NCBI GenBank assembly: GCA_964523575.1
Contig: CAZGAV010000012.1
Location: 385 to 64,384 of the forward strand
DNA length: 64,000 nt
Direction of reading: 5' to 3'
Source of the DNA: an uncultured Ignavibacteriales bacterium
GTDB lineage: Bacteria; Zixibacteria; MSB-5A5; GN15; JAAZOE01
Below the pieces are notes generated by a model. It worked only from the letters and a program-made list of their open reading frames with translations. It was not told where the DNA came from and ran no database searches. The position numbers were made by a program, and so were the translations under genes. Shown one piece after another: positions 5,528 to 47,842 of the stretch (position 1 is its first letter; the number at the start of each line of letters is the position of its first letter).

Positions 5528-5596
5528 GACATTCGGCTGCTTGGTGGAGGGACTCTTTGTAAGTCAATCAGTTGATATAAAATGACTTATAAAATA

Positions 5597-5612
5597 CGGC
5601 ATAGTATCTGCT
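5597..5612 (+). promoter_or_regulatory. sigma54-type (-24/-12) promoter for hsp20
   Basis: CGGCATAGTATCTGCT: GG at 5598-5599, N10, then GC at 5610-5611. Confidence 0.6.
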
Positions 5613-5663
5613 TGTATGATAAATGAAAAAAACATTAACCAAATGGATGAAAGGAGGCCCAAA

Positions 5664-6098
5664 ATGCGTAACCTCATGATTCGACACGGACGCAATAATC
5701 TCGCGAGCGAGATTGAGAACTTTTATCGGGATTTCTTCGGCGGTTCTCTGAACAGCGATTCTGAATACTCCTTTGCCCCTTCGGTGGACATTCAGGAGTC
5801 CAAGGATGATATCAACCTGACCTTTGAACTGCCGGGTATGGACAAGAAGGACATCAAGATCATGGTCGAAGACGGCGTTCTGACCGTTTCCGGCGAGCGC
5901 AAACTGCGCAACGAGGAAAAGACCGATGATTATATCCGCACCGAAATCCGCGACGGCAGTTTCAGCCGTTCCTTCACCCTGCCGAAATCAATCGACAGCG
6001 GCAATATCTCGGCCGATTACCGGGACGGCCTGCTGGTGGTCAAGCTGGTGAAGACAGAAGAAGCCAAACCGAAAGAAATCGAGATTAAAGTCAAATAA
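5664..6098 (+). CDS. Small heat shock protein Hsp20/alpha-crystallin
   Basis: PSVDIQE, ELPGMDKKDIKI, LTVSGERK, E..DGSFSRSFTLP, A.YRDGLL and PKEIEI. ATG 5664 follows an aggagg SD. Confidence 0.95.
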   Translation: MRNLMIRHGRNNLASEIENFYRDFFGGSLNSDSEYSFAPSVDIQESKDDINLTFELPGMDKKDIKIMVEDGVLTVSGERKLRNEEKTDDYIRTEIRDGSFSRSFTLPKSIDSGNISADYRDGLLVVKLVKTEEAKPKEIEIKVK

Positions 6099-6137
6099 AC
6101 TATTTCGCGGGTCAATCAATGCGAGTGCGTCATAATC

Positions 6138-6166
6138 GGGTCGGCCATTGCGGCCGGCCCTTTTTT
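6138..6166 (+). terminator. Intrinsic terminator after hsp20
   Basis: gggtcggcc-attgc-ggccggccc followed by T6. Confidence 0.8.
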
Positions 6167-6249
6167 ATTGAATCATGAATATCCATGATTCGAATCAAAT
6201 CGACCGACACTTGCCATGACCGCCACGCGGGGACCAAATCCGTATCTTA

Positions 6250-7152
6250 TTATGAAGCGAAAAAGCCAATGATATACTTGCCGGCAATAAAAAACATAAT
6301 GGCTGCCAGAACGCCTTTGATCAGTCTGGCCGGGAGGAATTTCTGCACCCGCGCGCCGGCATAGATACCGATGGCGCCGCCGATACCGAACATCAATCCC
6401 AGAAGCCAATCCACTTGGATAGCCTGACCGGTTGCGGAAAAAGACGATCCGAAGAGAATATAAAAAAGGACCCCAACGGTGGAATTGACAAAAGTCCCGC
6501 AGAGAGCGGCTCCGGAGATAGTGTGTACCGGGAGTCTGAAGACTGTTACCAGAAAGGGCGCCAGGATGGCGCCGCCGCCGATTCCGTAGATGCCGCCGAT
6601 GGCCCCGACCACGGCGCTGAGGGAAAAAATGACCGGCGTCGATACCTGATATTCGATGCCATTGAATTCGTAGGCGATGCGTCTGATGGTGAAGGCTTTC
6701 GGAACTACCACGAACTCGGCCCCGACCTGCCGGCGTTCGGGAATTGCTTTTCTCGGATGCAGGATATCGAGCAGCAGGCGACCGGCGATATAAAGAAGAA
6801 CGAGGCCGACAAAAAATTTAAATGGTCCCGGCTGAGGCAGGTATCGCACGCGAAGGAAGACCCCCAGGAGCAGGCCCGGGATGGTGCCGATCGAGATTGT
6901 CCAGACCAGCGGCCAGACCATCCGTTTCTCCCGGTAATACCGATAGACTCCGCTGGGAATGGCGATAATATTGAAGAGAAGATTCGTGGGGGTGACGCCG
7001 GGGGAGGTGAATCTTAAAACACTGACTTGAAACGGCAGAAGAACAAAGGCGCCGGAAAGCCCGGCCGTAGAAGTCACGGCGGAGATGGCGAAGGCGACTA
7101 CGATCGGGAGCCACCAATAGGTTTCGACCCCGCTGATTGGGAAATTAAGCAT
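6250..7152 (-). CDS. TauE/SafE (sulfite exporter family) membrane protein
   Basis: Multi-TM protein with GLSGAFVLLP and GGIYGIGGGAILAP repeats typical of TauE. Confidence 0.8.
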   Translation of the reverse strand: MLNFPISGVETYWWLPIVVAFAISAVTSTAGLSGAFVLLPFQVSVLRFTSPGVTPTNLLFNIIAIPSGVYRYYREKRMVWPLVWTISIGTIPGLLLGVFLRVRYLPQPGPFKFFVGLVLLYIAGRLLLDILHPRKAIPERRQVGAEFVVVPKAFTIRRIAYEFNGIEYQVSTPVIFSLSAVVGAIGGIYGIGGGAILAPFLVTVFRLPVHTISGAALCGTFVNSTVGVLFYILFGSSFSATGQAIQVDWLLGLMFGIGGAIGIYAGARVQKFLPARLIKGVLAAIMFFIAGKYIIGFFAS

Positions 7153-7194
7153 CCTGGGCCGAAATTACATTATTATCAATCCATAAGTCAATGC

Positions 7195-8214
7195 TTATTC
7201 CAGCCGGGATTGGGTAGCTTCGATTTGATCCAGAATTTTCCGATAGCCGTCGGGATCCCACTGATCCATTTGGGCGGATTTCAGGATATCGCGGGCGCGC
7301 ACCAGCAGGTCAAGGGCTTCCTGATAGTTACCGGAAGCGACGCCTATTTCACCAAGATCGCGACAGGTCAGCCCGATAAATTCATCATCGTGGGCCTGTT
7401 CGCATTGAGTCAACACCGGGCGCAACCACTGGCCCGCTTCCTGGAAACGTTTCAGATTCACCAGGGCGTGACCGACAGCATAATCGGCGATGACTTTATT
7501 GCGGTCGGTACCATATTTATAATGATATTCGCGAGCCTTCATGTAGGCTTCCAACGAACTGTCGTAGCGACCCATGTCTTCGTAAGTCGCGCCCAGATTA
7601 TTCCATAATGCCCCCAGCCAGCGAGTGATCTGACCGGTCTCGGCCTCTTTGATTCCCTTCTTGCCCCATTCCACCTGTTCGTCCTGTGTTCCAGTAATGG
7701 CGACCATGTGGGCGGCATCGATCGCGCGTTCATAAAGTTTGCGGCCCGAGCAATATTCGTAGAGGCTTTTAAAGAGGGCTGTCGCCTCGTCCGGTCGTTT
7801 CTCCTGCCAGAGAAACCTTCCCTTAACGCTCTGGTAACGCGACCACCCCAAGGGATCGTGATCGTCGGCGAGTTTCTCGGCCTTCAACAGCCATTCCCGA
7901 CCCGCTTCGACCTCATTCAAAATCAGATAAGTCCGGGCGATCATTGACAGCGCTTCGACCTGATCGGAATTACCGATTTCGATCTCGGCTTTGGCCAATG
8001 CTCTTTTATACAGGGATCGCGCCTGAACATACTGATCGCTGTTAAAGAGATCGTCCGCTTCTTTGATAAGTATTTGGGCTTCGCTCATTATTCCTCTGGT
8101 TTCATTCCCGGCATCGCCGTAATTCTGCGCTGAGACCGCCGGCCACATTATAAGCGCCAGCATCGCCAGATACAGATAACTCTCTATGGGACCCGTCCCG
8201 GAATGTAACTGCAT
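7195..8214 (-). CDS. Secreted tetratricopeptide repeat protein
   Basis: Signal-like N-terminus and helical TPR-like units (LWNNLGATYEDMG.Y..SL..Y.KA). Confidence 0.7.
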   Translation of the reverse strand: MQLHSGTGPIESYLYLAMLALIMWPAVSAQNYGDAGNETRGIMSEAQILIKEADDLFNSDQYVQARSLYKRALAKAEIEIGNSDQVEALSMIARTYLILNEVEAGREWLLKAEKLADDHDPLGWSRYQSVKGRFLWQEKRPDEATALFKSLYEYCSGRKLYERAIDAAHMVAITGTQDEQVEWGKKGIKEAETGQITRWLGALWNNLGATYEDMGRYDSSLEAYMKAREYHYKYGTDRNKVIADYAVGHALVNLKRFQEAGQWLRPVLTQCEQAHDDEFIGLTCRDLGEIGVASGNYQEALDLLVRARDILKSAQMDQWDPDGYRKILDQIEATQSRLE

Positions 8215-35720: not shown

Positions 35721-36446
35721 ATGGCCCAATCTGCAAGCACCTATTACGGCGCGTTTGAATTAAAACGCAGGTACCAGCGCAATATGTTGCTGGGTACCGG
35801 TTTTTCGGCGGCCTTGACGGCTTTGGTTATCCTCTCGATATGGATTTACAATATTATCACCTATGAGGATATGGAAGTCAGAAACGTCGTCCGGATCAAA
35901 ACCATCGCTGAACTGGGCGCGCCGCCTTCGCTGGCGGCTAAACCGCCCCAGGTCAGCATCGACAAGCCGAATGTCGCCCCACCCAAGGTCGGTATTCCGA
36001 CGGCGGTGGCCGACGATGAGGTCGTCGATGAGGATATCGTTATCGCCTCCCGGGAAGAACTCCAGGAGATCAATGCTCCGGTGCTGTCCGGCGCCGGAAA
36101 CGGTTCCAATACGGAACTGATTATCGATATCCCCGATGAAGACTATATGCCTTCGCCCGACGAATTCGTTCCGGTGGAAGAATACCCCGTACAGATTTCC
36201 GAGGAAATTCCGGAGTACCCTCGTCTGGCGCAGGAAGGCGGATTCACCGGATCGGTGATTGTCCAGGCCTATGTTGACAAAAACGGCGACGTCAAGAAGG
36301 CTCAGGCGGTAAAATGTACTCGGCCCAATATGGGCTTTGAGGAATCCGCGGTCAAAGCGGCCTACAAAAACAAATATCGCCCGGCCATCCAGAACGGCAA
36401 TCCCATCGGCCTCTGGATCGAGTATAAAATCGACTTTACGCTCTAA
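35721..36446 (+). CDS. tonB: Energy transducer TonB 1
   Basis: YGAFELKRRY N-terminus, a TM, a Pro/acidic linker, and TonB_C (PEYP..A..G.V.V...VDKNG..FEESAVKA..YRPAIQNG). Confidence 0.9.
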   Translation: MAQSASTYYGAFELKRRYQRNMLLGTGFSAALTALVILSIWIYNIITYEDMEVRNVVRIKTIAELGAPPSLAAKPPQVSIDKPNVAPPKVGIPTAVADDEVVDEDIVIASREELQEINAPVLSGAGNGSNTELIIDIPDEDYMPSPDEFVPVEEYPVQISEEIPEYPRLAQEGGFTGSVIVQAYVDKNGDVKKAQAVKCTRPNMGFEESAVKAAYKNKYRPAIQNGNPIGLWIEYKIDFTL

Positions 36447-36624
36447 TCGCCGAAATGAAATGCGGGGGAAGATAGAGCAATCTTCCCCCGGCAAATTCGT
36501 TATACCCCTCCGGGGCGGCCGCCCGTCCCGTTGACGTCACATCCCTCACGTCCCTCACGTCCGCGCAGCGCTACTTACCGGTAGTCCGTACACCGGAACG
36601 AGAAAACGGTGTGGCGGCCTTCCG

Positions 36625-36706
36625 TCCGAGAGAAAAGGCGTTAACCGGTCAGCCTTCGGCTTCGAAGCCGGCGGCCGACCAAGACAGCCTTTGAACGGAG
36701 GGAAAA
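36625..36706 (+). promoter_or_regulatory. Structured 5' leader A (homologous to 37733-37804)
   Basis: Starts tccgagagaaaaggc. aaaggc pairs with gccttt (36687-36692) around an inner ggtc/gacc and cggct/agccg stem, ending 4 nt before the ggaggg SD. Confidence 0.5.
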
Positions 36707-37006
36707 ATGAGGATACGCTATAGCCAACAGGCGCTGGTCTGGCAGAAACCGGACCGACTTCGGGAAATCGGCGTGTTTCCTCCCGGATGGCGGCAAGAAT
36801 GGTTCACCAACCTCTGCCTGGCGGCGGCTCTGACGGCTCTGTTGTTTCTCATGCTGTTATCCATCTATCTTGTTTTCACCAAACCGGCGGCGACGTCCAT
36901 TCCCGGCTATCCGCGCACCGGAGCCGCGGCTTCGGGTACGGGATTCGCCCATATTAACGGCCCGTCGGATGGGGAAGCGCCGATCGTTTCAAGAAACTGG
37001 GGATAG
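36707..37006 (+). CDS. Small single-TM protein A (99 aa)
   Basis: Strong ggaggg SD and TM LCLAAALTALLFLMLLSIYLV. Similar to 37805..38128. Confidence 0.6.
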   Translation: MRIRYSQQALVWQKPDRLREIGVFPPGWRQEWFTNLCLAAALTALLFLMLLSIYLVFTKPAATSIPGYPRTGAAASGTGFAHINGPSDGEAPIVSRNWG

Positions 37007-37044
37007 CAGGAATCAGCGCCGTTTATCGAAGGAGGTGATGATAA

Positions 37045-37704
37045 ATGGCAGGCGTTGATCTGGGCAAGGCCCGACCCGTCCGAGACGATAAGCCGAAAAG
37101 CCGGCGTCGAATAAAACGTCGCACCGGCGTGCGAGTGGTTATGACGCCGATGGTTGATATCGCTTTCCTGCTGTTGATTTTCTATATGGTGACCACGATT
37201 TTCGCCATGCCCCAGGCGATGGGGGTCAATCTTCCGCCCGACGAGGTCGTTACGGTTGGGAAATTGCTCACCATCCGGGTTGATGGACAGAATCGATTTT
37301 ATTGGAATCTCGGTCATGATTTGCCGGTCCCGATGAGGGCCGATTCCCTGTTCACTTTGCTTTTTGATAAGAGCCGCGAAATCCCGAAACTGAATACCCT
37401 GCTTACCATCCATCCGCAGGCAAGATACCATGTTATGGTCGATATCCTCGATGAAATCGACCTGGTTGAAAGAAAGTTCAACGACGGGGTAGCGGCCAGA
37501 CTCGGCGTTTCCGCCGAAATTTTCAACGATCCCGATAATGACCGATACAGCGAATTTTATGATAAACGATTTTCGTATCGTTACGCCACCGCGCCGTGGG
37601 AGGACCGCGACACCAGAATAATTAATAAGATATGGCGCACCGGAAGGGGGGGAATAGCCATGAATAACAAAACCGCGATTATCTTTGATGATGAGTTTCC
37701 TTGA
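37045..37704 (+). CDS. exbD: ExbD/TolR family protein 3 (close paralog of ExbD2)
   Basis: MTPMVDIAFLLLIFYMVTT. It aligns over nearly its full length with 35092..35718 (FNDPDN.RY.EF, FSYRYA..PWEDRD.RII). Confidence 0.88.
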   Translation: MAGVDLGKARPVRDDKPKSRRRIKRRTGVRVVMTPMVDIAFLLLIFYMVTTIFAMPQAMGVNLPPDEVVTVGKLLTIRVDGQNRFYWNLGHDLPVPMRADSLFTLLFDKSREIPKLNTLLTIHPQARYHVMVDILDEIDLVERKFNDGVAARLGVSAEIFNDPDNDRYSEFYDKRFSYRYATAPWEDRDTRIINKIWRTGRGGIAMNNKTAIIFDDEFP

Positions 37705-37728
37705 CGACTATAAAATATAAGTTATAAT
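37701..37728 (+). promoter_or_regulatory. sigma70-type promoter for the ORF B-tonB2 unit
   Basis: TTGACG-N16-TATAAT, overlapping the exbD3 stop codon. Confidence 0.7.
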
Positions 37729-37732
37729 ATTT

Positions 37733-37804
37733 TCCGAGAGAAAAGGCCGATGATCGGCGCCGGGCCGGTCATACATCCCGCGACCTTTTGATAAGGAGGG
37801 AGAC
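37733..37804 (+). promoter_or_regulatory. Structured 5' leader B
   Basis: Same 15-mer tccgagagaaaaggc. aaaagg pairs with cctttt (37784-37789) around atgatcggc/gccggtcat, ending 5 nt before the ggaggg SD. Confidence 0.55.
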
Positions 37805-38128
37805 ATGAGCCTTTTTTCAAACCCCGAATATATAATTCTCACGCCCATCCCCGCGAGAGCCGCCGTCGCTTGCACCGACAGCGGGAATTATGCCGTCATA
37901 AAATCGCTTTTGATGGCCGCCGTGCTTGGCGCGGTGCTGTTCATGACGGTCCTTTCCATCCTGTTCGTGCATTTGGGCCAGGTTCCGTCTTTCCCCGGAA
38001 CTCATACCGGCCGGAATCATGATAAACCGCGGATGGTACAGGCCCTCGATACTCTCCAAAACAATTCTGACTGCTTTATATCAATAACAAAGACAAAAGG
38101 GGGTGAATATCATGATGCGCTCATTTGA
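37805..38128 (+). CDS. Small single-TM protein B (107 aa)
   Basis: aaggaggg SD and TM LLMAAVLGAVLFMTVLSILFV. Similar to ORF A. Confidence 0.6.
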   Translation: MSLFSNPEYIILTPIPARAAVACTDSGNYAVIKSLLMAAVLGAVLFMTVLSILFVHLGQVPSFPGTHTGRNHDKPRMVQALDTLQNNSDCFISITKTKGGEYHDALI

Positions 38129-38864
38129 ACTGCCTTATGGCGCCTTTGAATTAAAAAGCCGCTACCAGCGAAATATGCTTATCGGAACGACAACGGCCGT
38201 GTTGCTGGCGACGGCGTTGATCAGCTTAATCTGGATTCTGGGCTGCGCCGCCGCAGTGGAAACGCAGATTGTGGATCCGCCCGGACTCACCGACAGCATG
38301 ACGATAATATTTGTCGAGCCGTCTCCACCCGGCATCGACGATATTCGAGGCGGCAAGGGCATCAAACCACCGCCGCCATCTAAATTGGATAATGGTATTT
38401 TCGTCGCGGTTGACGATTTACTGGCCGAGGAGGATACGGTCGACTTTTCGGAACTGCATAAAAGGGGGACAGGTGAATACGATCCGGAGGCGGAATATGG
38501 CGAAGACGGCGACCAAGGTGAGCCCGGCGGGCTATATATCGGCCCGGAGGTAATACCTCCCGTGGGGGCTTTCATCGCTGTCGAAGTTGGGCCCGTGATC
38601 ATCCATGAACAAAAACCGGAATATCCGCGTCTCGCCCTGGAGGGGGGATTCACGGCTTCGGTTTTCATCGACGCCTTCGTTGGCCGCGAAGGACAGGTGC
38701 TCGACGCCCGAGTCGCCCGATGCACTCGAAACCATATGGGTTTTGAGGAAGCGGCCCTGAAGGCCGCTTATAAATGCACCTATCGGCCGGCCATCCAGAA
38801 CGGGGCCCCGGTCGGTGTCTGGATCAGCTATCAAGTCGATTTTGTCTTGGACAGGTCGCGATAG
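38112..38864 (+). CDS. tonB: Energy transducer TonB 2 (paralog of TonB1)
   Basis: YGAFELKSRYQRNML, a TM, and TonB_C ..CTRNHMGFEEAALKAAYK..YRPAIQNG. It has the same gggggtgaata start context as tonB1. Confidence 0.88.
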   Translation: MMRSFELPYGAFELKSRYQRNMLIGTTTAVLLATALISLIWILGCAAAVETQIVDPPGLTDSMTIIFVEPSPPGIDDIRGGKGIKPPPPSKLDNGIFVAVDDLLAEEDTVDFSELHKRGTGEYDPEAEYGEDGDQGEPGGLYIGPEVIPPVGAFIAVEVGPVIIHEQKPEYPRLALEGGFTASVFIDAFVGREGQVLDARVARCTRNHMGFEEAALKAAYKCTYRPAIQNGAPVGVWISYQVDFVLDRSR

Positions 38865-39066
38865 AGCAAAATAATTCCCCCTCGTCGGTTCACCCGGGGG
38901 CCGGACGCGGCCCCCCTTCGCCGCCTTATTTTTGTGTTGTCGATATCGGGCCGGGGCTGAAAGGCACTTTTCCTATGGGGGCATTTTCAATATGTCGTGT
39001 CGATTTTTAGATTGACCACAATATATGGCAATCGGACTCCAATAATGATAATTATAAAAAAATCGC

Positions 39067-39095
39067 TTGACAACTGCACAAATGTGCAGTATTTT
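39067..39095 (+). promoter_or_regulatory. sigma70-type promoter whose spacer is filled by an 18-bp palindrome (candidate LexA/SOS box)
   Basis: TTGACA-N17-TATTTT, with ACTGCACA-aa-TGTGCAGT at 39073-39090. Confidence 0.7.
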
Positions 39096-39137
39096 TAATT
39101 TGACACCGATAATAATACCGGACACAAGGAGCAGGCC

Positions 39138-39356
39138 ATGGATTGCAATCAATACTCGGAACGGAAAGTTATCTCCGCGGCGGACCGATGCCGGGGCTCG
39201 TCGCAGCGGAAACCGGCACCATCGGACGAGGCGCGACTTTTAGCGTCCCGGCCATCGTCCGGCCCGCAGGCGGGTCGTTGTACCTGTGGGGGAGTGCTGG
39301 TCAGGCGCGGATACTGCTTCGTGTGCGTTGTCTGCGGCTGGGGAAGTTGTGAGTGA
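39138..39356 (+). CDS. Zn-ribbon microprotein (72 aa) resembling the C-terminal Cys-rich tail of class II ribonucleotide reductases
   Basis: aaggag SD and C-terminal CTCGGVLVRRGYCFVCVVCGWGSCE. Confidence 0.6.
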   Translation: MDCNQYSERKVISAADRCRGSSQRKPAPSDEARLLASRPSSGPQAGRCTCGGVLVRRGYCFVCVVCGWGSCE

Positions 39357-39412
39357 ATTGGGGGAGTATTTCCGGGGCCGGCCATAGGGCCATAATTCAG
39401 GGGGATGAAACG

Positions 39413-42040
39413 ATGCGAAAACGACTGGCGAAATCGGGACTGCCGGAGCCGATTCTGGCGCAATGGGAAGAACGATTCCACGGGCGACTTCTGCCGCTCC
39501 AATATCGGGCGGTTGAGGAATATAAGCTTCTGGAGGGGAATTCGCTTTTAATCTCGGCGCCGACCTCTTCGGGCAAAACCTTCTGCGGCGAAATGGCTCT
39601 GGTGCGGGCCGTGCAACAGCGGCAGAAGGGCATTTTCCTGGTGCCGCTGAAGGCGGTGGCCGAGGAAAAATACCGTCACTTCGTCGATTGCTACGGCGGC
39701 CTCGGCTTACGCGTCGTTATCGCTACCCGGGATCATCCCGAAAATGACGGCCTGGTCGAAAGCGGCCGGTTCGATATCGCCGTGATGATTTACGAGAAAT
39801 TCAATTCCCTGTTATTGACCAATTTTGACCTCATGTCGCAGGTTGGCACGGTCGTCGTCGATGAATTGCAGATGCTTGAGGACAAAACGCGCGGGCCTCA
39901 ACTGGAATTGGCCCTGACCAAACTGCTCTATTCGGAATACCGGCCTCAGCTGGTGGCTCTTTCGGCCGTTCTGGGCGAAGCCACCGAACTGGCCGAATGG
40001 CTGGGTTGCCGCCTCTTGCTGGAAAATATGCGCCCGGTGGAATTACGACGGGGGGTGGTTTCTGACGGTCGTTTCTATTTCCGATGCCATAATTCCGGCG
40101 AACTGGGGGAAGATACCTGCCGGCAGGGCGAAGATATCAACCTGACCTTGTTCGAGAATATCCAGGCGGTCACGGCCGTCGGCAAACAGACTTTGGTGTT
40201 TCTCAAATCGCGGCGCGATACCATGCTCGCGGCCCGGCGTTTCGCGGAATATACCCATCGTGCATCATGGTCGAAAAACAAAGAATTCTTCGATGCAAAG
40301 TTGGCCGACGAAGAGGAATCGTCGCTTCTCAAAAACCTCCGCAGTCTTCTGACGGTCGGCATTGCGTTCCATAACGCCGACCTGACCGCCGCCCAACGGC
40401 TGGCCGTCGAAGAAGGTTACCGGGCCGGTTTGATCGACGTTATTTTTGCGACCACTACTCTCTCGACCGGCATCAACTTACCTGCGGCGACAGTTTTCAT
40501 CGAGGCGCAAAAATATCGGCGGCAGGGCTATAGCGGCCGTCCCGGTCTCGAACCACTCTCATGGGCCGAATACGAAAGCATGTCCGGTCGGGCCGGCCGA
40601 GTCGGATTGACCGATGAAGAGGGCGATGGCCAGGCGGTGTTATTCGCCTCCGGCGAACTGGAGAAGTCAATTCTCTGGGAATACTATATCGACCGGCAGG
40701 CGGCGTCGCTCAAATCCCAATTGCCGTCGCGCCATCCGGCCGATATCCTCATCGACCTTTTCAGTTCCGGGCTTGTTCGGAGCCCCGAGGAGACCGCCCG
40801 GCTTCTCGAAAAATCATATTGCCATATATGTAATGACCAAAATACAAGCGATATAGAGAATATATGTGAAGTATTACTTGATGATGGTTTTTTGGTTCGG
40901 CAGGGCCGGCAAATCACGGCTACGCCTCTGGGGCAAACCGTTGCCGTCACCGGCATGACGGTGGCCGGCGCCGACTGTATCCTGAAGAGACTGCCCCGTC
41001 CCGAAACCGAAAGCGACGGTCAAATCCTCTTTCATTTGTTCCAATTGCCCGAGGCCGGATCACTGTACTTGCCGACACCAGCCGGCCGAGGGCGGATGCG
41101 CCTGCCTCGAAGATTTTTCGCCGAATCGGCTGAGGAAAATCCGTTAATCCGGGAGCTGTCGGCCATGCAGCGGGAACTGGCCCCCGACGAAATCAACCGC
41201 CTGGGGCTGGCGCTTTTGATGGAAGACTGGATGGCCGGAATGCCGGCCATCGAAATCGAAAGCAATTACGCCCTTCATCCGGGGATGATGGAAAATCTGG
41301 GTTATCAAACGGGATGGCTGCTGGCTTCGGCGGCGGCTATCGTCCGCGCCTGCGACCGTTTTGCATCCCTGCCCGCGCGACTCGATGATCTGGCCTTTGC
41401 CTCCCGGACGGGACTGCCGGTCGTTTATCGGGACCTTTACAAGGATTTCGGGGATATCCTTTTCCGCAGTGACTGGCTGGCTCTGCATCACAGGGAAATC
41501 ACCGATCGGCGCCGGATGCTTGATGAAGGTCTGGAGATTATCAGAAGTCGGACGAAGTCGGAAGAACGCCTGATCAAAATCGAAGAAAGATTCCATAAAA
41601 TAAAGGAGGCTTCTATGTCATCGAAAGGTGTATCGATGCTGAGTACGGCCCCGTGGCCGGAAACCATTGAAATCGACGGAACTCCCATCCGGGAACGGTT
41701 CCGGGTGCGGATCAATGGTCATACGGTGAACCTGACCGGGAAATCTTTCAAGTACCTTGTCAAGCTGGCCTGGTCGAGGCTAACTAAAGACAGTGGATGG
41801 TTATACAAGGAAGATTTAGAGTGTGGCTTTAATCAGGCCCGATACCTGTATCGTCTCCGACAGGAGATCGGCCGGGATTTTCTGCCGGAATGGCCGTTGT
41901 ACGAAAACAACCGCTCTGGCTATTATCGGCTGGCCGCTGACCGGGAAGGGATCAAGATCAATGTCGAGGCTTTGAAGGAAATTCCGGATTATGAGATTCA
42001 GCAAATAGCCCTGGATTTGAATCCGGTGGCGGCCGGTTAA
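39413..42040 (+). CDS. Ski2/Hel308-like SF2 helicase with C-terminal OmpR/PhoB-like winged-helix domain
   Basis: Motifs APTSSGKT, VVVDELQ, ALSAV, MRPVEL, AFHNADL, TTTLSTGINLPA and MSGRAGR. C-terminus is INGHTVNLTGKSFKYLVKL..YLYRLRQEIG..ENNRSGYYRL. Start trimmed to ATG 39413. Confidence 0.88.
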   Translation: MRKRLAKSGLPEPILAQWEERFHGRLLPLQYRAVEEYKLLEGNSLLISAPTSSGKTFCGEMALVRAVQQRQKGIFLVPLKAVAEEKYRHFVDCYGGLGLRVVIATRDHPENDGLVESGRFDIAVMIYEKFNSLLLTNFDLMSQVGTVVVDELQMLEDKTRGPQLELALTKLLYSEYRPQLVALSAVLGEATELAEWLGCRLLLENMRPVELRRGVVSDGRFYFRCHNSGELGEDTCRQGEDINLTLFENIQAVTAVGKQTLVFLKSRRDTMLAARRFAEYTHRASWSKNKEFFDAKLADEEESSLLKNLRSLLTVGIAFHNADLTAAQRLAVEEGYRAGLIDVIFATTTLSTGINLPAATVFIEAQKYRRQGYSGRPGLEPLSWAEYESMSGRAGRVGLTDEEGDGQAVLFASGELEKSILWEYYIDRQAASLKSQLPSRHPADILIDLFSSGLVRSPEETARLLEKSYCHICNDQNTSDIENICEVLLDDGFLVRQGRQITATPLGQTVAVTGMTVAGADCILKRLPRPETESDGQILFHLFQLPEAGSLYLPTPAGRGRMRLPRRFFAESAEENPLIRELSAMQRELAPDEINRLGLALLMEDWMAGMPAIEIESNYALHPGMMENLGYQTGWLLASAAAIVRACDRFASLPARLDDLAFASRTGLPVVYRDLYKDFGDILFRSDWLALHHREITDRRRMLDEGLEIIRSRTKSEERLIKIEERFHKIKEASMSSKGVSMLSTAPWPETIEIDGTPIRERFRVRINGHTVNLTGKSFKYLVKLAWSRLTKDSGWLYKEDLECGFNQARYLYRLRQEIGRDFLPEWPLYENNRSGYYRLAADREGIKINVEALKEIPDYEIQQIALDLNPVAAG

Positions 42041-42085
42041 AACGGAGAGGCTTTGTACGCTTTGGTGATCTTTACGTTCGGGCTG

Positions 42086-42114
42086 TTGACATTTTGCTTC
42101 CGGGGCGGTAAACT
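42086..42114 (+). promoter_or_regulatory. sigma70-type promoter for the Lon-like gene
   Basis: TTGACA-N17-TAAACT. Confidence 0.6.
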
Positions 42115-42128
42115 CTCTTGAGAAAAGA

Positions 42129-44681
42129 TTGTATAAGCCGATAAGAAACGTAAAGATGACCATGATTATAAAGCCTCGTAAACATTTGCCGCTTGACGAA
42201 ACTCAGGCGGAAAAAAACCTGCCGGTTTTACCGCTCAGGTCGGCCGTGATATTTCCGGGTGAAATTTACACTATCCAGATGGGCCGCAAGGAGAACCTGG
42301 AACTGCTCAAGGCTGTAGCCCAGCGGGATAACCTGCTGGTCCTATCCTTCGCACCCCAGGATGTGCCATCCGGGGCCGCCCCGCGGCTGTCTCAGGTGAG
42401 CGTCCTGGCCCGGATCGAGTCCATCAAGCCGTCAATGGCCAATTCACAGATGGTCACGCTCGAAGGACTGCAACGTGTCGCCCTGATGGATATCGTCACC
42501 TCGGTGCCGTTCATCGAGGCCCGGGTACAGGAGGTCAGGGAGGAAAACACCGACGGAAGCGTCGTCGAAGGTTATCTCTCAGAAGTCACGCACCTGATGA
42601 CCCAGCTGGTCCGAATCGATAATCGTTATTCCAATGAATTGATATATAATCTGGAAATGAACCGACCCTTGCCGAGCGCCTTCGCCGATCGCATCGGGGC
42701 TATGATTCATTTTCAATTGAGCGACAAGCAGGAAATTATTGACTCCCTGGAAATCGGCAGTCGTCTCGAAACGATAATCCGCCTGCTCAAAGATGAAATC
42801 GACAAATTTTCCCTGACGACGCAGATCAATACGCGGGTGAACGAATCGCTGGAAAGGAAGAAGCGCGAGAATTTCCTGCGCCAGCAATTGGCCGAAATCC
42901 GGAGGGAGCTGGGCGAAGAGTTTATCGAGGAAGACGTTTCCAAGATCTATCGCCAGAAAATCAGCGAAAACAAGGCCTTGCCGGCCGAGGTCGCCAATCG
43001 TCTTCTCCTGGAAATCGATCGCCTGGTGCATCTGCCGTCGTCTTCGGCGGAATACGGTTCCACCAAAAATTATATCGACCTGATGCTCTCGTTGCCGTGG
43101 CAGAGCCCGCCCATGGAACCTTTCGATCTGGTCGACGTTGAAGCCGCTATCGGCCGCGAATATTACGGGCTGTCCCATATCAAAGAACAGGTTCTGGAAT
43201 ATCTGTCGATGCGGCAGTTGAGCCGCGATAAAAGGGATTTGCCGATCCTTTGCCTCGCGGGCGCGGTTGGAACCGGCAAGGCGTCTCTGGTCAAGGCTAT
43301 CGCCAAGGCGATGGGCCGGGAATTGGTCCGAATCAACGGCACCAGCCTGATAATCAGCGAAGATATCAAAGGTTTGCATCGCAGTGAAATCGGTTCCGGA
43401 CCGGGGCAATTGGTGCGTGCCATCCAACGCGCCGGATCATTCGATCTCGTGATCTACCTCGAGGATCTGGAGTATGTGATCGAATCCGAGGACACCAACG
43501 CCCTGCTGGCCTTGCTGGAGGCCGTTGATCCGAGGCAAAACGGCCATTTTGTCGATAATTTCGTCGGCATTCCTCTCGATCTTTCCCGGGTCTTGTTCGT
43601 TCTGGGCATTACCGCCGAGGATTTCCCGGAACCGTTCGCTCACCGCCTGGAAATGATCGAGATGTCGGGCTATATCGAGCGGGAGAAGATCGTCATTACC
43701 AAGAAACATATCCTGCCCAAATTGTATAAACGATATGGCTTGACCCGGGCCGAATTGCGTTTTACCGACCGGGGTCTGGCGCGGATTATTCGCCAGTACA
43801 CTATGGAAGCCGGGACGATCGGACTGCAACAACAGCTGGAGAAGATTTTCCGGCGGATTACCCGCAAGAAAGCCATCAGCGAAAAATGTAATTATGTGCT
43901 CAAGGAAAACAATGTCGATCAGTACCTGGGAACGCCGCAGTATATACCCGAGAAGGCCATGTCCAAGCCGGAAATCGGCGTGGCCAACGGTCTGGCCTGG
44001 ACCGGAGCCGGCGGTGATTTAATGCTGATCGAAGGATTGAAAATGCGGGGTACGGGCCAGGTTTTCACGACCGGATCATTGGGCGAAGTGATGAAAGAAT
44101 CGATCCAGGCGGCCCATAGCTTTGTGCGCGCCCGGGCCGATTTACTCGGGATCGACCATAATGACTTCGTCAATTTCGATATCCATATTCACTTTCCACA
44201 GGGGGCTATTCCCAAAGATGGCCCTTCGGCCGGGGTTACCGTCTCGCTGGTGATCGCCTCGGTTATGGCCGAACGGCCGATTCGGAGTGATATCGCCATG
44301 ACCGGCGAAGTGACGCTTCGAGGCCGGGTACTGCCGGTCAGCGGCGTCAAAGAGAAGGTCTCGGCGGCCTACCGCGCCGGAGTGCACACTATTATCCTGC
44401 CCAAGGAAAATCAGAAGGATATCAAGGAAATACCGCGGGAAATCGTCCGGAAAACATCGTTTGAGTTCATCGAAACCGTCGACGAGTTATTCGAAAAAGG
44501 ACTGCTTGATTTTACTCCCTCGACCTATACTCTGGAAAAAATCTTTGCCGAGGAAATCGAAAAGGCCCGCAAACGAGGCCGTACGAAATCCAGGGCCGCC
44601 GCAGGCAAAACCCCGAAAAAGACTAAAACCACCAAGAGCAAAGCTACGAAAACCAGGACGACGAAAAAGAAAAGTGAATAG
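42129..44681 (+). CDS. lon: Lon (endopeptidase La)-like protease with degenerate AAA+ motifs (start may be ATG 42156)
   Basis: LPVLPLR N-domain, a protease domain with PKDGPSAG (Ser) and GVKEK (Lys), Walker [10 protein letters not shown] and Walker B region IYLEDLE. Confidence 0.88.
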
Positions 44682-44780: not shown

Positions 44781-45377
44781 ATGCGTTTATTAACCCTTCT
44801 TACTGCCCTTGCCTGCATGGTTCTTGTCAGCGTGGTCGCAAGCGCCGAAACCGCGATTTCGTCCAATGATGAGAATTTACCCGATACTCTCCTGATCGAT
44901 CGGATTCAGACCGTCAAAGGCGACAAGGTTGCCGTAAAAGTCGATTTTGTCAACGATCAGGAACTGGCCGCGTTGACCATTCCTCTCGGTCTGGTCGGCG
45001 ACCTGTATCGAATTGATTCGGTGTCGTTCGTCGGTAGCCGGGTCGAATATTTGAAAATGAAACCGGTGACTATCGCCGAAAATCGCGAGGATGTCGTTTT
45101 CGGGGCGATATGTATGACTGAGGACTATATCGCGCCGGGAAGAGGACTGCTGGCGACCCTGTATTTGTCGCCGATCGCATCGTCCAAATCCGATTTCTGC
45201 GTCATCGACACTATTACCATGGGGCCGGCCTCGATATTGTTTACGAAAGTATCTTCGGCCTCGTTTATTCCCGAATTTCAGGCCGGCCGGATTACTTACG
45301 GTCAGGCCGAATCCGACAGCGGCGCTGTTAAAAAAGAGGCCGAAAGCGAAACCGCCGGTAAAAAAGACGGCGAATAA
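44781..45377 (+). CDS. Secreted single cohesin-like domain protein
   Basis: Signal peptide and a beta-rich domain DTLLIDRI..ELAALTIPL..IDSVSFVGSRV..IAPGRGLLATLY..F.PEF..G.I that is paralogous to the N-domain of the next gene. Confidence 0.65.
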   Translation: MRLLTLLTALACMVLVSVVASAETAISSNDENLPDTLLIDRIQTVKGDKVAVKVDFVNDQELAALTIPLGLVGDLYRIDSVSFVGSRVEYLKMKPVTIAENREDVVFGAICMTEDYIAPGRGLLATLYLSPIASSKSDFCVIDTITMGPASILFTKVSSASFIPEFQAGRITYGQAESDSGAVKKEAESETAGKKDGE

Positions 45378-45451: not shown

Positions 45452-45553
45452 ATATTTAACAGACGAAAATTATACATCGTACTACACTTGTCAGGCCTTA
45501 TGCGGCGTTAAATTTAGTTGATTACAACTTTTTTTTGTACACAGGAGGTTCCC

Positions 45554-47842
45554 ATGCAATACAGGATGTTGTTGCTTGTTGTATTGACAGCGCTGTGTGC
45601 TACAATGGCTTTCGGACAGGGGGCTGCCAACGATCCCGGGCTTCGCGACACCCTTTATATTGAGTCGGTTACCGTTGATGCCGGACAGAAGGCCGTGGTC
45701 GAAATCAACTTTTTCAGCGATGAGGAGCTGGCGGCGTTGACGATCCCGCTGGCCTGGACATCGGCGGATATCACACTCGATTCGGTTTCCTACGCCGGCA
45801 GTCGCATCGCTTATATCAACACCAAGCCGTACACTATTTATAACTCCAATCAGGAAGTCGTTTTCGGTGCGGTCGTCTTTTTCGAAGCCAATATCGCTCC
45901 CGGTAGCGGCCTGATGGCCACACTCTATTTCGATGTCCCGCCCGGTACACCCGATCAATTCGTCGATATCGACAGCACAACTATCCCCCCGGCCCAGCTC
46001 TACTTCACCAATACCAACTCGAGCAATTTCACGCCCGAAGTGTTTCCGGGAACGATTCAGATCGGCGAACCTCAGTTGCCGCCCCATATTGTTCTGACGC
46101 CGACTTCGATGACATTCGAAGGGACGGTGGGATTTCCCAGCCCGCCGGGGCAGGCGTTGTCGATTTCCAATAGCGGACCGGGGGCCATGACCTGGACTTC
46201 TTCCTTCTCCTCCACCTGGCTTTCGGTCAACCCTTCAAACGGCACCGCTCCCTCCGCGACATCCATCAATGTCAACATCGCCGGCCTCTCCGATGGCGTC
46301 TATTATGACACCGTCGTCATCACCGCGCCGGACGCGGATAATTCGCCGCAGAAATTACCGATAACCCTCAACGTTATCACTCTGCCGCCCAAAATCGTGT
46401 ACACGCCAACGTCCTTCGCCGTATCGGCCATTCAGGGCGGCGTCAATCCTGATGATCGCTACCTCAGGATATTTACCGATGTTCCCGGAAGCAGTCTCAA
46501 CTGGTCGGTTGCCAATTCCTCGGGCTGGCTGAACCTGACGCCGACGTCGGGTATTTCCGACGATTCGGTCACTTTGCAGTTCGATATTACCGGCCTTTCG
46601 TTCGGATTCTATTATGACACTGTTCTCATCACCGACCCGGCGGCGACGAATAATCCTCAGAAAGTCCCGGTAACCCTGCAAATCGTATCCGATCTGCCCG
46701 TTCTGGGACTCGAGCCACCGGTGGTCCATGTCGTAGCAGCCATAGGGACGAGTACCCCCCCGCCGGAAGAGGTTTTGATTTACAATTCGGGTGAGGGAGT
46801 TATGACCTATCAGGCCACCGAAACCAGCAAAGCTATCGTCGGTTTGTCGCCGGCTTCGGGGTCGGCGCCGCAGAGTATGCAAATATCGTTCAACCTGTCG
46901 ACGGTTCCTCCCGGCGATACCTATGACACCATTACCGTGACCTCACCGGAGGCGGTCAACTCGCCACAATATATCATCGTCCATTATCATCTGTCTGCCA
47001 ACCCGGCCAATATCGCCCTTTTCCCGAGCGCGATCTCCTTTTCTTATTATGAATGCTGGCAGGGGCCTCATTCCCTGCCGCCCATCAAAACCTTCCAAAT
47101 CGTCAATACCGGAGATGATAACATGTCCTGGTGGCTGACTCATAACAGCGACTGGCTGATGCTTTCCACCACTTCGGGAACCGACGATGCCGTCGTTACT
47201 CTGACGCTCGACGCCGAAGGATTGCCAGTCGGGACTTATTATGATACGGTTGTCGTCTATTCCGACGAAGCCCTGGTCAGTCCCAGGCGGTTACCGGTGA
47301 CCCTGAATATTATCCCGGGGACCGAAACGCCCGAACTCGTTATCTCCGATACCGTCAAGAACGTTAAAGCGCAGGAAGTGTTCGGCCCCTCCCTGAATCT
47401 TATCGCCATAACGCAACTCTATAATCTTTATCCGGGCTGTATGGACTGGTGGGTGGAAGAGGATATACCCTGGTTGAAATTCATCGATTCTTCCGGTCAG
47501 GCCCCCTATACGCCGGTCGTGGCCATCGAAGTAGGAAGTTATACCTGGGGCGTTTATCCCGACTCATTCTATTTTTATTCCTCTACGGCCGCCAATTCGC
47601 CGGTCAAGATGCACGTCAACCTGCAGGTCTGGCGTCTGCACGGCGATTTCGACTGGAACAATGAAATCAATATTGCCGATGTCGTTCAGATGATCAATTA
47701 TGCCTTCAAGTCCGGAGTCGGTCCCCAGCCAGAGTACCTGGTCGGCGATTGCAACTGCGATCACTTCATCGGGATCGATGATATCGTGGTTTTGATCAAT
47801 TATGTCTTCAAATTCGGCAACAAGCCCTGCGGCAATCCCTGA
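45554..47842 (+). CDS. Secreted scaffold-like protein: cohesin-like domain, 5 BACON/Ig-like repeats and C-terminal dockerin
   Basis: ATG after an aggagg SD, signal peptide, five ~100-aa units ending in YYDT(V/I)..T.P.A.NSP...P.TL, and terminal HGDFDWNNEINIADVVQMINY.FK.G..P...GDCNCD..I.IDD.V.LINYVFK.G. Confidence 0.8.
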   Translation: MQYRMLLLVVLTALCATMAFGQGAANDPGLRDTLYIESVTVDAGQKAVVEINFFSDEELAALTIPLAWTSADITLDSVSYAGSRIAYINTKPYTIYNSNQEVVFGAVVFFEANIAPGSGLMATLYFDVPPGTPDQFVDIDSTTIPPAQLYFTNTNSSNFTPEVFPGTIQIGEPQLPPHIVLTPTSMTFEGTVGFPSPPGQALSISNSGPGAMTWTSSFSSTWLSVNPSNGTAPSATSINVNIAGLSDGVYYDTVVITAPDADNSPQKLPITLNVITLPPKIVYTPTSFAVSAIQGGVNPDDRYLRIFTDVPGSSLNWSVANSSGWLNLTPTSGISDDSVTLQFDITGLSFGFYYDTVLITDPAATNNPQKVPVTLQIVSDLPVLGLEPPVVHVVAAIGTSTPPPEEVLIYNSGEGVMTYQATETSKAIVGLSPASGSAPQSMQISFNLSTVPPGDTYDTITVTSPEAVNSPQYIIVHYHLSANPANIALFPSAISFSYYECWQGPHSLPPIKTFQIVNTGDDNMSWWLTHNSDWLMLSTTSGTDDAVVTLTLDAEGLPVGTYYDTVVVYSDEALVSPRRLPVTLNIIPGTETPELVISDTVKNVKAQEVFGPSLNLIAITQLYNLYPGCMDWWVEEDIPWLKFIDSSGQAPYTPVVAIEVGSYTWGVYPDSFYFYSSTAANSPVKMHVNLQVWRLHGDFDWNNEINIADVVQMINYAFKSGVGPQPEYLVGDCNCDHFIGIDDIVVLINYVFKFGNKPCGNP
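46078..47635 (+). repeat. Five tandem BACON-like Ig repeats (approximate bounds)
   Basis: Recurring P.I...P....F, M.W....S..WL...P.SG and YYDT..I....A.N.P motifs. Confidence 0.7.

Follow-up and report, generated by a model that had tools for sequence, protein, structure and literature searches.

The window analysed here, a stretch of 64,000 nucleotides from an uncultured bacterium of the Zixibacteria lineage, contains a gene coding for a Hel308-like superfamily II (SF2) helicase with a C-terminal winged-helix (wH) domain. The following features are discussed below:

39067..39095 (+): promoter-like TTGACA-N17-TATTTT, with the palindrome CTGCACAAATGTGCAG (39074-39089) occupying its spacer as a candidate LexA-type operator
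39138..39356 (+): small open reading frame (ORF) of 72 aa with its own Shine-Dalgarno (SD) sequence AAGGAG and a C-terminal zinc-ribbon-like C.C...C..C..C pattern, the conserved upstream partner of the helicase
39413..42040 (+): full-length gene, Hel308-like SF2 helicase plus C-terminal wH domain (875 aa, 98.9 kDa; Pfam, NCBIfam, and PDB matches)
39860..39871 (+): motif II DELQ (D150-Q153), i.e., DExQ and not DExH
40574..40600 (+): motif VI ESMSGRAGR, without the usual Gln, pairing with KQMSGRAGR of 2va8 in the alignment
41369..41641 (+): helical region past the ratchet domain, with four short domain-5-like helices (aa 653-713) and a long helix that runs up to the linker (aa 717-743) in the AF2 model
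41602..41609 (+): internal SD AAAGGAGG, codons AAA-AAG-GAG-Gct (K-K-E-A), anti-SD duplex of -11.7 kcal/mol
41615..42040 (+): ORF of the putative short isoform (141 aa, 16.3 kDa, pI 7.8), opened by the internal ATG (Met735) and ending at the stop of the full-length gene
41666..42037 (+): predicted winged-helix domain, aa 752-875 (AF2 models, Foldseek)
42086..42145 (+): lon control region, TTGACA-N17-TAAACT followed by CTTGAGAAAAG (42117-42127), which is conserved, and GTATAAGCCGATAAG (42131-42145), which is invariant

The helicase and its chromosomal neighborhood

The helicase ORF runs from the ATG at 39413 to the stop codon at 42038-42040, with an alternative GTG at 39353. We take ATG 39413 to be the real start because the homologs share both their length (870 to 895 aa) and the N-terminal sequence MRKRL.K..IPEPI and because GGGGGA lies just ahead of it. 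Pfam searches recovered the DEAD (1.5e-22) and Helicase_C (7.8e-9) domains, as well as Helicase_dom4_arc (PF21280; 28.6 bits against a cut-off of 27), and NCBIfam models of the Hel308 type cover residues 10 to 648 with an E value of 4e-100. The equivalog cut-offs of NF040935 and NF002654 are not reached (228 bits against 1200 and 336 bits against 887, respectively), and the protein is therefore better described as a Hel308-like relative than as an equivalog. The best PDB matches are all Hel308/Hjm proteins, namely, those of Saccharolobus solfataricus (2va8), Pyrococcus (2zj2), and Archaeoglobus (2p6r), and the alignment with 2va8 extends through residue 645. Consistent with this, the AF2 model of the full-length protein (pLDDT 87.5) displays a long helix of the ratchet type at residues 623 to 647, beyond which the four short helices occupy the place expected for domain 5; precomputed PF14520 (HHH_5) matches exist for just a few of the homologs, and the window protein itself gave none.

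In terms of the established Hel308 domain scheme (PMC13623763), the protein shares with these archaeal enzymes and metazoan HELQ the Ski2-like SF2 core, comprising RecA1, RecA2, the winged-helix domain 3, the ratchet domain 4, and the helical region after the ratchet. Motif I reads APTSSGKT, and motif IVa, which is also held in common, is GIAFHNADL, where Hel308/Hjm/HELQ have F/YHHAGL. In contrast to Hel308/HELQ, the zixibacterial protein is bacterial and phylum-wide, has DExQ instead of DExH, lacks the Gln of motif VI, and adds a long helix, a linker, an OmpR-like C-terminal wH domain, and an internal start. The two catalytic departures are family traits: DExQ occurs in 117 of 119 family members, the protein even matching the Pfam DEXQc_Suv3 model weakly, and the motif VI consensus of the family is [YF]x[NS][MI][ST]GRAGR, from which Gln is absent. 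The preliminary description had proposed a Hel308-like helicase with precisely these two oddities, and the searches above agree with it on each count. On sequence grounds, the gene is a bacterial Hel308-like DNA helicase that spans the Zixibacteria, with domains 1 to 4, a domain-5-like region, and a predicted helicase activity; we found no description of such a helicase-wH protein in the literature searched. Hel308/HELQ helicases have been studied as recombination controllers of archaea and eukaryotes. The family is widened here by a bacterial clade, large and conserved, in which the catalytic motifs are altered and a domain of the DNA-binding type is present in addition; such a clade may offer a more tractable system.

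The neighborhood of the gene is conserved, in the order LexA-like palindrome over a promoter, zinc-ribbon ORF, helicase, and lon. Of 48 homologous loci, 32 have the palindrome CTGNAC-N4-GTNCAG at a distance of 250 to 630 nt upstream of the helicase start; the remaining 537 kb contain 4 matches, and only one exact copy is present within the window. The zinc-ribbon ORF is recognizable by the motif CP[DE]CG..MVR.G.CF.CP.CG...C, followed by a stop codon, at most 400 nt upstream of the helicase (48 of 53 loci); it has no Pfam or PADLOC match. Rfam models run over 38500-42400 gave nothing credible, so that the small ORF and the promoter, rather than a known RNA, account for the long stretch ahead of the helicase. 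Downstream, lon follows directly in 74 of 80 loci, tonB/exbD flank the gene together with lon in most species, and in the window, cohesin/dockerin/MopE genes also lie downstream of lon.

Because the LexA-type palindrome occupies the promoter spacer, the helicase operon is probably DNA-damage inducible; it is a conserved candidate SOS operon, made up of operator, zinc-ribbon protein, and helicase, in an uncultured phylum. The SOS-like box and the zinc ribbon noted in the preliminary description are thus both real and conserved, and of its proposed "repair or defense module," the repair half is plausible on account of these two elements. The defense half found no support. A Ski2-like core is shared with the Hachiman protein HamB (PADLOC HamB models, E 3e-30; PDB 8vx9, E 6.5e-14), but these matches do not extend beyond the RecA core and fall far short of those to Hel308. 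Moreover, no HamA (DUF1837) gene adjoins the helicase, whose neighbors are the zinc-ribbon ORF, TonB/ExbD, and Lon. With only a generic similarity to the HamB core, no partner gene, and a conserved core synteny, we reject a defense system; the gene, which is single and syntenic between lon and tonB/exbD in most species, looks like a core repair gene and not part of a defense island. Among the sequencing runs searched, it was traced only to salt-marsh DNA metagenomes, and no RNA-seq or metatranscriptome run containing it was found.

The predicted C-terminal winged-helix domain

In the full-length AF2 model, the long helix at 717-743 gives way to a low-confidence segment (737-745), and a disordered linker of about 10 to 30 residues separates this helix from a compact domain at 752-875. 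Modeled on its own (pLDDT 84, pTM 0.79), this domain has a three-stranded sheet, helix 1, a short helix 2, a recognition-type helix 3 (NQARYLYRLRQE), and a β-hairpin wing (ENNRSGYYRL), after which come an extra strand and two helices. Foldseek searches retrieved as top matches BaeR, VicR, CadC, GlnR, YycF, MtrA, PhoP, OmpR, and ToxR; among the top 16 PDB matches, 13 are DNA-binding domains of OmpR/PhoB response regulators and the other 3 (CadC, GlnR) are OmpR-type winged helices. E values range from 5.6e-3 to 0.3, with probabilities up to 1.0, a TM score of about 0.55 on the target, and sequence identities of 13 to 21%, and profile searches gave weak matches to ArlR DNA-binding domains (E 0.06 to 0.25). 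The domain is predicted to share with OmpR/PhoB DNA-binding domains (e.g., BaeR 4b09, VicR 2hwv, CadC 5ju7, and PhoP 2pmu) the N-terminal sheet, the three helices, and the hairpin wing, as well as basic and polar residues that are conserved along helix 3 and in the wing, where its own invariant N, Q, and R residues lie. It differs in being joined to a helicase and not to a receiver domain and in the elements that follow the wing.

We accordingly predict an OmpR/PhoB-type fold for the domain. The earlier suggestion of a trans_reg_C-like wHTH holds as far as the resemblance in fold goes (AF2 topology, Foldseek, and the ArlR matches), and the possibility that the C terminus is not a wHTH finds no support in the models; membership in Pfam Trans_reg_C, by contrast, does not follow, as PF00486 matched neither the window domain nor 25 stand-alone relatives at an E value of 1 or below. 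Given this and the modest Foldseek E values (best 5.6e-3), the domain is a putative binder of nucleic acid, with indirect support from its invariant N, Q, and R residues and from the generally basic character of the wH domains (median pI 9.0, n=40). Pfam and NCBIfam searches with the C-terminal 141 aa and the 25 stand-alone relatives assigned no family. By sequence comparison, the domain forms its own unannotated family with at least 640 cluster representatives, so that the analysis defines a winged-helix family in an uncultured phylum.

The helicase and the wH domain are fused in all of the best 120 homologs and all of the 142 sampled loci, down to about 36% identity. As the fusion is universal in the family, a recent fusion, which the preliminary description had entertained, is rejected; the event is an ancient one. 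In a sister clade characterized by LPAKSF (e.g., L089), helicase and wH are fused in the same way but no internal start is present, and the putative short isoform is hence dispensable to the architecture. Scanning of metagenome contigs with a narrower alignment of the stand-alone domain, together with the other searches, yielded true stand-alone homologs of 120 to 170 aa (L081, L085, L086, L132, L138, and L169). Those of L081, L138, and L169 adjoin cohesin/dockerin/MopE genes, and that of L086 lies in an archaeal-type replication locus with the arrangement MCM, wH, RPA-like OB. Four other candidates (P0277, L077, L032, and L154) were discarded as frameshifted helicases or products of error-prone long-read assemblies.

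The internal Shine-Dalgarno sequence and start codon

As the preliminary description had it, AAAGGAGG is followed in the window by cttct and an in-frame ATG (41615-41617, codon 735) that opens a 141-aa ORF. This ATG coincides with the start of the linker and hence with the boundary between the helicase and the wH domain. The arrangement AGGAGG-N4-9-ATG occurs seven times in the window against 2.8 expected, and five of the six other copies mark the 5' ends of ORFs of 107 to 762 aa; the copy at 41615 is the only one deep inside an ORF. A single such motif is unremarkable alone, but its conservation over about 140 homologous genes is, from the comparison of their sequences, far beyond chance. No sigma-70-like internal promoter that could serve a separate transcript was detected between 41200 and 41615.

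At this position, GGAG(G) followed by ATG, or occasionally GTG, is present throughout those roughly 140 genes. In 79 of 80 species-representative zixibacterial genomes, as in the window, GGAG(G) precedes an in-frame start codon (GTG in two cases, otherwise ATG) that lies 38 to 51 codons ahead of LTGKSF, with an SD-to-start spacing of 6 nt in 65 of the 80 genes. An independent set of 63 fusions from metagenomes shows the SD and start again in 59. Relatedness of the homologs means that these counts are not independent events, but the positions flanking the site have nevertheless been randomized. The start codon is GTG in L028, L044, L103, L127, and L128 and ATG otherwise. Calculated on the assumption of a canonical anti-SD, the duplex energy at the internal site has a median of -11.5 in the 80 genes, compared with -3.0 for 1108 in-frame ATGs elsewhere (p = 9e-48), and -11.5 is reached by 59% at the internal site versus 1.4% of equally searched control windows. 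The internal SD is even stronger than that of the primary start (median -7.5). The surrounding sequence also has the hallmarks of an initiation region: the ±30 nt around the internal start fold less stably than the remainder of the gene (z = +1.7, p = 5e-31, 63 genes), and the AT content is 63% in the 25 nt upstream versus 45% gene-wide.

The signal extends to synonymous positions. Within the six codons ahead of the ATG, the Glu codons are divided 127:16 between GAG and GAA, as opposed to 2225:2118 elsewhere in the genes (p = 5e-21). Among 73 distinct sequences, G occupies the third-codon position at -10 in 71 and that at -7 in 66. In the position matrix, conservation is confined to A-GGAG(G) and ATG, while the flanks, including the coding positions just downstream of the internal ATG, carry 0.03 to 0.5 bits. 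The encoded residues are variable: K, Q, E, or R precedes the Glu, and it is followed by A, D, G, E, or V, all with GNN codons, and also by N, L, F, or I. The constraint at the internal site, as read from these alignments, acts on the nucleotides beyond what the protein requires. Loss of the SD among homologs, which would have told against the proposed second start, is therefore not what the phylum-wide comparison reveals.

The probable production of two proteins from one gene, and the alternatives

We think it probable, at about three chances in four, that this one gene makes both a Hel308-type helicase-wH protein and a free wH protein from a conserved internal start. Ribosomes initiating at 39413 would produce the 99-kDa helicase-wH protein. 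A second initiation region at the start of the linker, A/U-rich, weakly folded, and consisting of AAAGGAGG, 5 nt, and ATG 41615, would allow independent initiation on the same mRNA, giving a 16-kDa polypeptide of linker plus wH; with two such regions on one mRNA, the locus would yield two proteins sharing the wH domain. We infer that initiation at 41615 takes place, that the wH binds nucleic acid, and that its free form works in trans at the DNA or partner sites which the tethered copy also uses, be it as a co-assembling partner, as a competitor limiting recruitment of the helicase, or as a small regulator itself. If the free form modulates the helicase, a repair motor would here be regulated in trans by the very domain that targets it.

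Related arrangements are known. Escherichia coli ArcB/ArcB-C and other internal sites are likewise 3' proximal, in frame, and SD led, and the ArcB-C product was demonstrated by Western blotting and Ribo-RET (Meydan et al., bioRxiv 10.1101/520783). The zixibacterial case concerns another protein, domain, and phylum and is known from sequence alone, but the site is kept more broadly (across the phylum, in about 140 genes). In two-polypeptide phage endolysins, an in-frame internal start in the linker supplies extra copies of the C-terminal binding domain, which in some of these enzymes assemble with the full-length chain (PMC9430671). By analogy, they might serve as a model for the free wH as a partner, although the endolysins are lytic enzymes of phages and use their C-terminal domain to attach to the cell wall. 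Among bacterial instances of two proteins from one gene that are purely comparative, the internal start is one of the cleanest, being phylum-wide and visible at synonymous sites.

A different function for the same product would be as an independent transcription factor, chiefly for lon or the downstream cell-surface cluster, rather than in modulating the helicase. In general, OmpR/PhoB-type domains act as transcription factors, lon lies downstream in the great majority of loci, and the stand-alone wH genes of L081, L138, and L169 sit beside the same cohesin/dockerin/MopE genes that are found downstream of lon in the window. In addition, both examined members of the LPAKSF clade lack lon downstream along with the internal start, but that contrast is drawn from two genomes only, and the synteny may simply be phylum-level gene order. 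Furthermore, when the region upstream of the lon -35 element was aligned in 12 species, no conserved repeat suitable as a wH binding site emerged, only a loosely conserved T-rich stretch. We consider this function unlikely, if still deserving of some weight.

The remaining alternatives dispense with a second product. Whether internal SD motifs cause ribosomal pausing has been disputed since the original ribosome-profiling report. Under such a mechanism, the motif would impose a programmed elongation pause that lets the helicase body fold before the wH emerges, with only the full-length protein being made; the site is indeed placed exactly at the domain boundary, ahead of the disordered linker, and ribosomes from 39413 must read through it in any case. 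Yet a pause requires no start codon, and here the ATG is invariant at a fixed spacing, its sole substitute being GTG, the other efficient start codon. The A/U-rich, unfolded context also fits initiation, as does the use of this motif at genuine gene starts elsewhere in the window, and we judge a pause to be improbable. Still less credit can be given to a functionless relic of a separate wH gene fused by loss of its stop codon. The existence of stand-alone wH genes makes a fusion origin plausible, and the LPAKSF clade either lost the signal or never had it, but a neutral relic would decay as the surrounding, essentially random positions of the same sequences have done, and yet 90 to 97% of these sequences retain G at the synonymous positions -10 and -7, in a set whose proteins are down to about 36% identical. 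Finally, a protein-level motif, K/Q-E-[EDVA]-x-x-M, perhaps capping the long helix, with an incidental likeness to an SD, suits the C-terminal end of helix 717-743, where Lys and Glu are common, but is scarcely credible when the amino acids vary under fixed GGAG(G) nucleotides, when the residues after Glu are chemically unrelated and share only a G-initial codon, and when the strong preference for GAG over GAA is synonymous.

Returning to the proposed production of two proteins, a broader extension can be conceived, though we regard it as speculative and rather doubtful. The wH domain might be an unrecognized nucleic-acid-binding family distributed across archaeal-type replication loci, as in L086, and bacteria, which in the Zixibacteria exists in two forms from one gene. 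The free form would be a stoichiometric brake or loader acting in trans on a damage-inducible Hel308, a role comparable to one suspected for the N-terminal region of human HELQ, and the stand-alone copies beside cohesin/dockerin genes would be descendants of the isoform after loss of the helicase. The internal start has also left a trace in gene prediction: one apparent stand-alone homolog (P0270) is an artefact, namely, the tail of a helicase at the edge of a contig that begins inside the gene, where gene callers chose the internal ATG as the gene start. Standard annotation either misses this start or calls a gene there by accident at contig edges.

The helicase and its C-terminal domain

The gene under study encodes a protein in which Pfam recognizes DEAD, Helicase_C, and the archaeal helicase domain 4. 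Residues 655-875 matched no family in Pfam or NCBIfam. The NCBIfam Hel308-type models cover residues 10-648 (E values of 4e-100 to 1e-67, far under the equivalog cutoffs), and the nearest solved structures are those of archaeal Hel308/Hjm (2va8, 2zj2, and 2p6r), which align over residues 10-645. The features of the gene are as follows:

39413-42040 (stop codon 42038-42040), + strand: helicase ORF, 875 aa from ATG 39413
39860-39871, + strand: motif DELQ, the DExQ form seen in 117 of 119 homologs
40574-40600, + strand: motif VI, ESMSGRAGR, which is without Gln throughout the family

The preliminary description had read both motifs correctly; they are common to the whole family rather than peculiar to one gene. 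Protein searches recovered more than 1,200 relatives, and the best 120 of these are almost all 860-956 aa long, with 36-71% identity and 98-100% query coverage, and belong, where named, to Zixibacteria or the FCB group. Among species-representative genomes, 80 loci were recovered, nearly all in Zixibacteria MAGs; salt-marsh metagenomes also match the window. The near-full length of the best relatives and the concentration of the loci in Zixibacteria indicate that the fusion is ancient and phylum-wide, and this occurrence rules out the recent fusion that had been offered as one alternative.

An AlphaFold2 model of residues 735-875, built from a 40-sequence alignment (pLDDT 84, pTM 0.79), predicts about 11 disordered residues followed by three strands, helix 1, a short helix 2, helix 3 (NQARYLYRLRQE), a β-hairpin (ENNRSGYYRL), an extra strand, and two helices. 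In Foldseek searches of the PDB, its top matches were OmpR/PhoB-type DNA-binding domains, namely, those of BaeR, VicR, CadC, GlnR, YycF, MtrA, PhoP, OmpR, and ToxR (probability up to 1.0; target-normalized TM score of ~0.55; E values of 5.6e-3 to 0.3). A profile search of PDB sequences returned weak matches to ArlR alone (E values of 0.06-0.25). The invariant residues K43, S44, N73, Q74, R80, N99, and R105 (domain numbering) map to the start of helix 1, helix 3, and the wing, and the domain is basic (median pI 9.0), with an acidic helicase body (pI 5.6). The predicted fold, the Foldseek matches, the invariant residues, and the basic pI support a resemblance to OmpR-like winged helices, and we infer that the domain binds DNA. 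The likeness to Trans_reg_C noted earlier thus stands at the level of the fold; a match to that Pfam family itself was not found. In the full-length model (pLDDT 87.5), residues 653-713 form short helices and residues 717-743 one long helix; confidence is low at 737-745, and the winged helix spans 752-875. These boundaries place Met735 at the predicted junction of helicase and linker.

Initiation signals at the domain boundary

Ahead of the winged helix, the sequence contains the in-frame Shine-Dalgarno (SD) and start codon that the preliminary description had proposed:

41602-41609, + strand: internal SD AAAGGAGG, followed by five bases and then the ATG
41615, + strand: internal ATG, in frame, giving a 141-aa product

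Such SD-ATG motifs number seven in the window versus 2.8 expected, and a single motif is not significant alone. Of the six other copies, five stand at ORF 5' ends (ORF lengths of 107-762 aa; exbD and the genes for two signal-peptide proteins are among them), and the copy at 41615 is the sole one deep inside an ORF.

The decisive evidence for an internal start comes from comparison of genomes. An in-frame ATG preceded by GGAG(G) lies 38-51 codons ahead of the conserved LTGKSF motif of the C-terminal domain in the window and in 79 of 80 genomes, with GTG replacing ATG in two loci (L028 and L044) and an SD-to-start spacing of 6 nt in 65 of the 80; a second, independently retrieved set shows the signal in 59 of 63 metagenomic fusions (three with GTG), all of these counts covering genes related by descent. 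The SD is therefore kept among homologs, one of the points on which the preliminary proposal had turned. The median duplex energy at the internal start is -11.5 kcal/mol versus -3.0 at 1108 further in-frame ATGs within these genes (Mann-Whitney p = 9e-48), as computed against the canonical anti-SD, which was assumed for the host organism rather than read from its 16S. When the same procedure of choosing the best start in a 46-codon window was run elsewhere in these genes as a control for selection, 1.4% of the windows reached -11.5, versus 59% at the internal start.

Codon usage around the site follows the same pattern. Within the six codons ahead of the ATG, Glu is encoded by GAG and GAA in a ratio of 127:16, versus 2225:2118 elsewhere (p = 5e-21), and the position after Glu is occupied by one of five unrelated residues (A, D, G, E, or V), all with G-initial codons. 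In a position matrix of 73 distinct sequences, conservation is restricted to A-GGAG(G) and the ATG; G occupies third-codon position -10 in 71 of the 73 and position -7 in 66, and the flanks, downstream coding positions included, are at 0.03-0.5 bits. The ±30 nt around the start are folded less than the remainder of the gene (mean z = +1.7, n = 63, p = 5e-31), and the 25 nt upstream are 63% AT versus 45% gene-wide; a check of the region ahead of the start for a promoter-like site found none. In most species the primary start also follows a purine-rich SD-like sequence (median -7.5), so the phylum relies on SD-led initiation, with the internal SD stronger than the primary one.

The analysis demonstrates the architecture, the conserved initiation signals where the domains meet, and the autonomy of the winged helix in other settings; on comparative sequence grounds we consider functional internal initiation at 41615 probable (about 0.75-0.8). 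On a single mRNA, ribosomes would start at 39413 as well as at 41615, yielding the helicase-winged helix protein and a free winged helix, the latter possibly in excess because the internal SD is stronger. Acting in trans, the free form would recognize the nucleic acids or partners for which the tethered copy is specific. It might coassemble with the full-length chain, like the internal-start products of some endolysins (PMC9430671), represent a diffusible version of a domain, like ArcB-C (bioRxiv 10.1101/520783), or be a small regulator; any single specific role is, by itself, unlikely to be the right one. The predicted N-terminal peptide of the short form, (M)SSKGVSMLSTAPWPETIEIDGTPIR, could not come from a trypsin cut in the full-length chain after ...IKEAS.

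Genes whose in-frame internal start frees a C-terminal domain are already known, as are Hel308 helicases themselves. The literature searched describes no bacterial Hel308-like clade with a DExQ motif and a motif VI lacking Gln, nor the OmpR-like domain added to it, the unannotated winged-helix family, or the phylum-wide internal start.

A sister clade and stand-alone relatives

A sister clade marked by LPAKSF keeps the fusion with a Lys/Arg-rich linker devoid of Met; a search of the linker in one member (L089) found neither a start nor an SD, and lon is absent downstream of the helicase in both members examined (two genomes). Dockerin-bearing genes lie upstream in the two genomes viewed (L089, helicase at 5001-7679, and the contig of protein P0082).

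Among 1.84 billion cluster representatives, a profile search recovered at least 640 proteins with the winged-helix domain; they include helicase fusions (835-1075 aa) and many short proteins (110-170 aa). Part of these short proteins are artefacts of contig edges or frameshifted long-read assemblies. At locus L084 (90-515; protein P0270), the contig starts inside the helicase gene, and in public annotation a 141-aa "hypothetical protein" begins at the internal SD-ATG; the helicase is likewise split in public gene calls at L083, L077, L032, and L154, and long-read MAGs have both helicase and lon broken by frameshifts. Because of such split entries, stand-alone homologs appear more numerous than they are. 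The true small genes are as follows:

L081, 7001-7426: beside cohesin/dockerin/MopE genes
L138, 4938-5387: beside cohesin/dockerin/MopE genes
L169, 4884-5393: beside cohesin/dockerin/MopE genes
L085: among a DNA methyltransferase gene and a ParB-like gene
L086, 795-1214 (= L090; also L087): between an archaeal-type MCM gene and an OB-fold RPA/Stn1-like gene
L132: among housekeeping genes

Given these genes, the domain is able to act as an autonomous small protein. The L081, L138, and L169 genomes are AT rich, and the neighboring cohesin, dockerin, and MopE-type genes encode secreted proteins, which raises the question of whether the family may regulate such clusters or whether the synteny may be left over. 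The position of the L086 gene next to an MCM with MCM, MCM_lid, and MCM_WH_arc domains and an RPA/Stn1-like gene hints that replication loci of archaea, or of archaeal mobile elements, also contain members of the family.

Control regions and neighboring genes

The upstream region contains the following features:

35721-38864, upstream of the operon: two TonB_C-domain genes and an ExbD gene
39067-39095, + strand: sigma-70-like promoter TTGACA-N17-TATTTT, whose 17-nt spacer holds a palindrome
39074-39089, within the promoter spacer: 16-bp palindrome CTGCACAAATGTGCAG
39138-39356, + strand: small ORF, 72 aa, with its own SD, driven by the 39067 promoter

In 32 of 48 Zixibacteria loci the palindrome precedes the helicase by 250-630 nt; the other 537 kb contain only 4 copies. 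It is a candidate LexA (SOS) operator and matches TGCNC-N4-GTGCA, the reported LexA box of Fibrobacter succinogenes. Both the SOS-like box and the Zn ribbon of the preliminary description are thus conserved, the latter as a zinc-ribbon-like end, CP[DE]CG..MVR.G.CF.CP.CG...C and then a stop, immediately ahead of the helicase in 48 of 53 loci. The F. succinogenes LexA has been characterized (PMC3091678). Conservation of the 72-aa ORF is confined to its C-terminal 25 residues; it had no family match, and its product probably acts as a partner of the helicase. In 20-29 of the 80 homologous loci, TonB and ExbD genes are found upstream, and the ExbD start at 37045 has a perfect AGGAGG SD.

The suggestion of a defense module was not borne out: the HamB-type similarity reported by PADLOC is limited to the core helicase, no HamA gene is found near it, and the gene is a syntenic core one. 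A defense island was rejected on these grounds, and the helicase gene is a core and probably damage-inducible one.

Directly after it, in 74 of 80 loci, comes lon with its own conserved control region; no terminator was found between the two genes.

42086-42165, + strand: lon control region, TTGACA-N17-TAAACT, then CTTGAGAAAAG, then GTATAAGCCGATAAG

The last of these elements is invariant in 12 of 12 aligned species, and the spacing resembles that of a heat-shock (sigma-32-type) promoter; alternatively, the region may be a conserved 5'-UTR element. Since the mechanically called start, TTG 42129, falls within the conserved element, ATG 42156 or 42162 (M(TM)IIKPRK) is the more likely start of Lon. 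Secreted-protein genes related to those of the cohesin clusters follow lon in the window (44781-45377 and 45518-47842).
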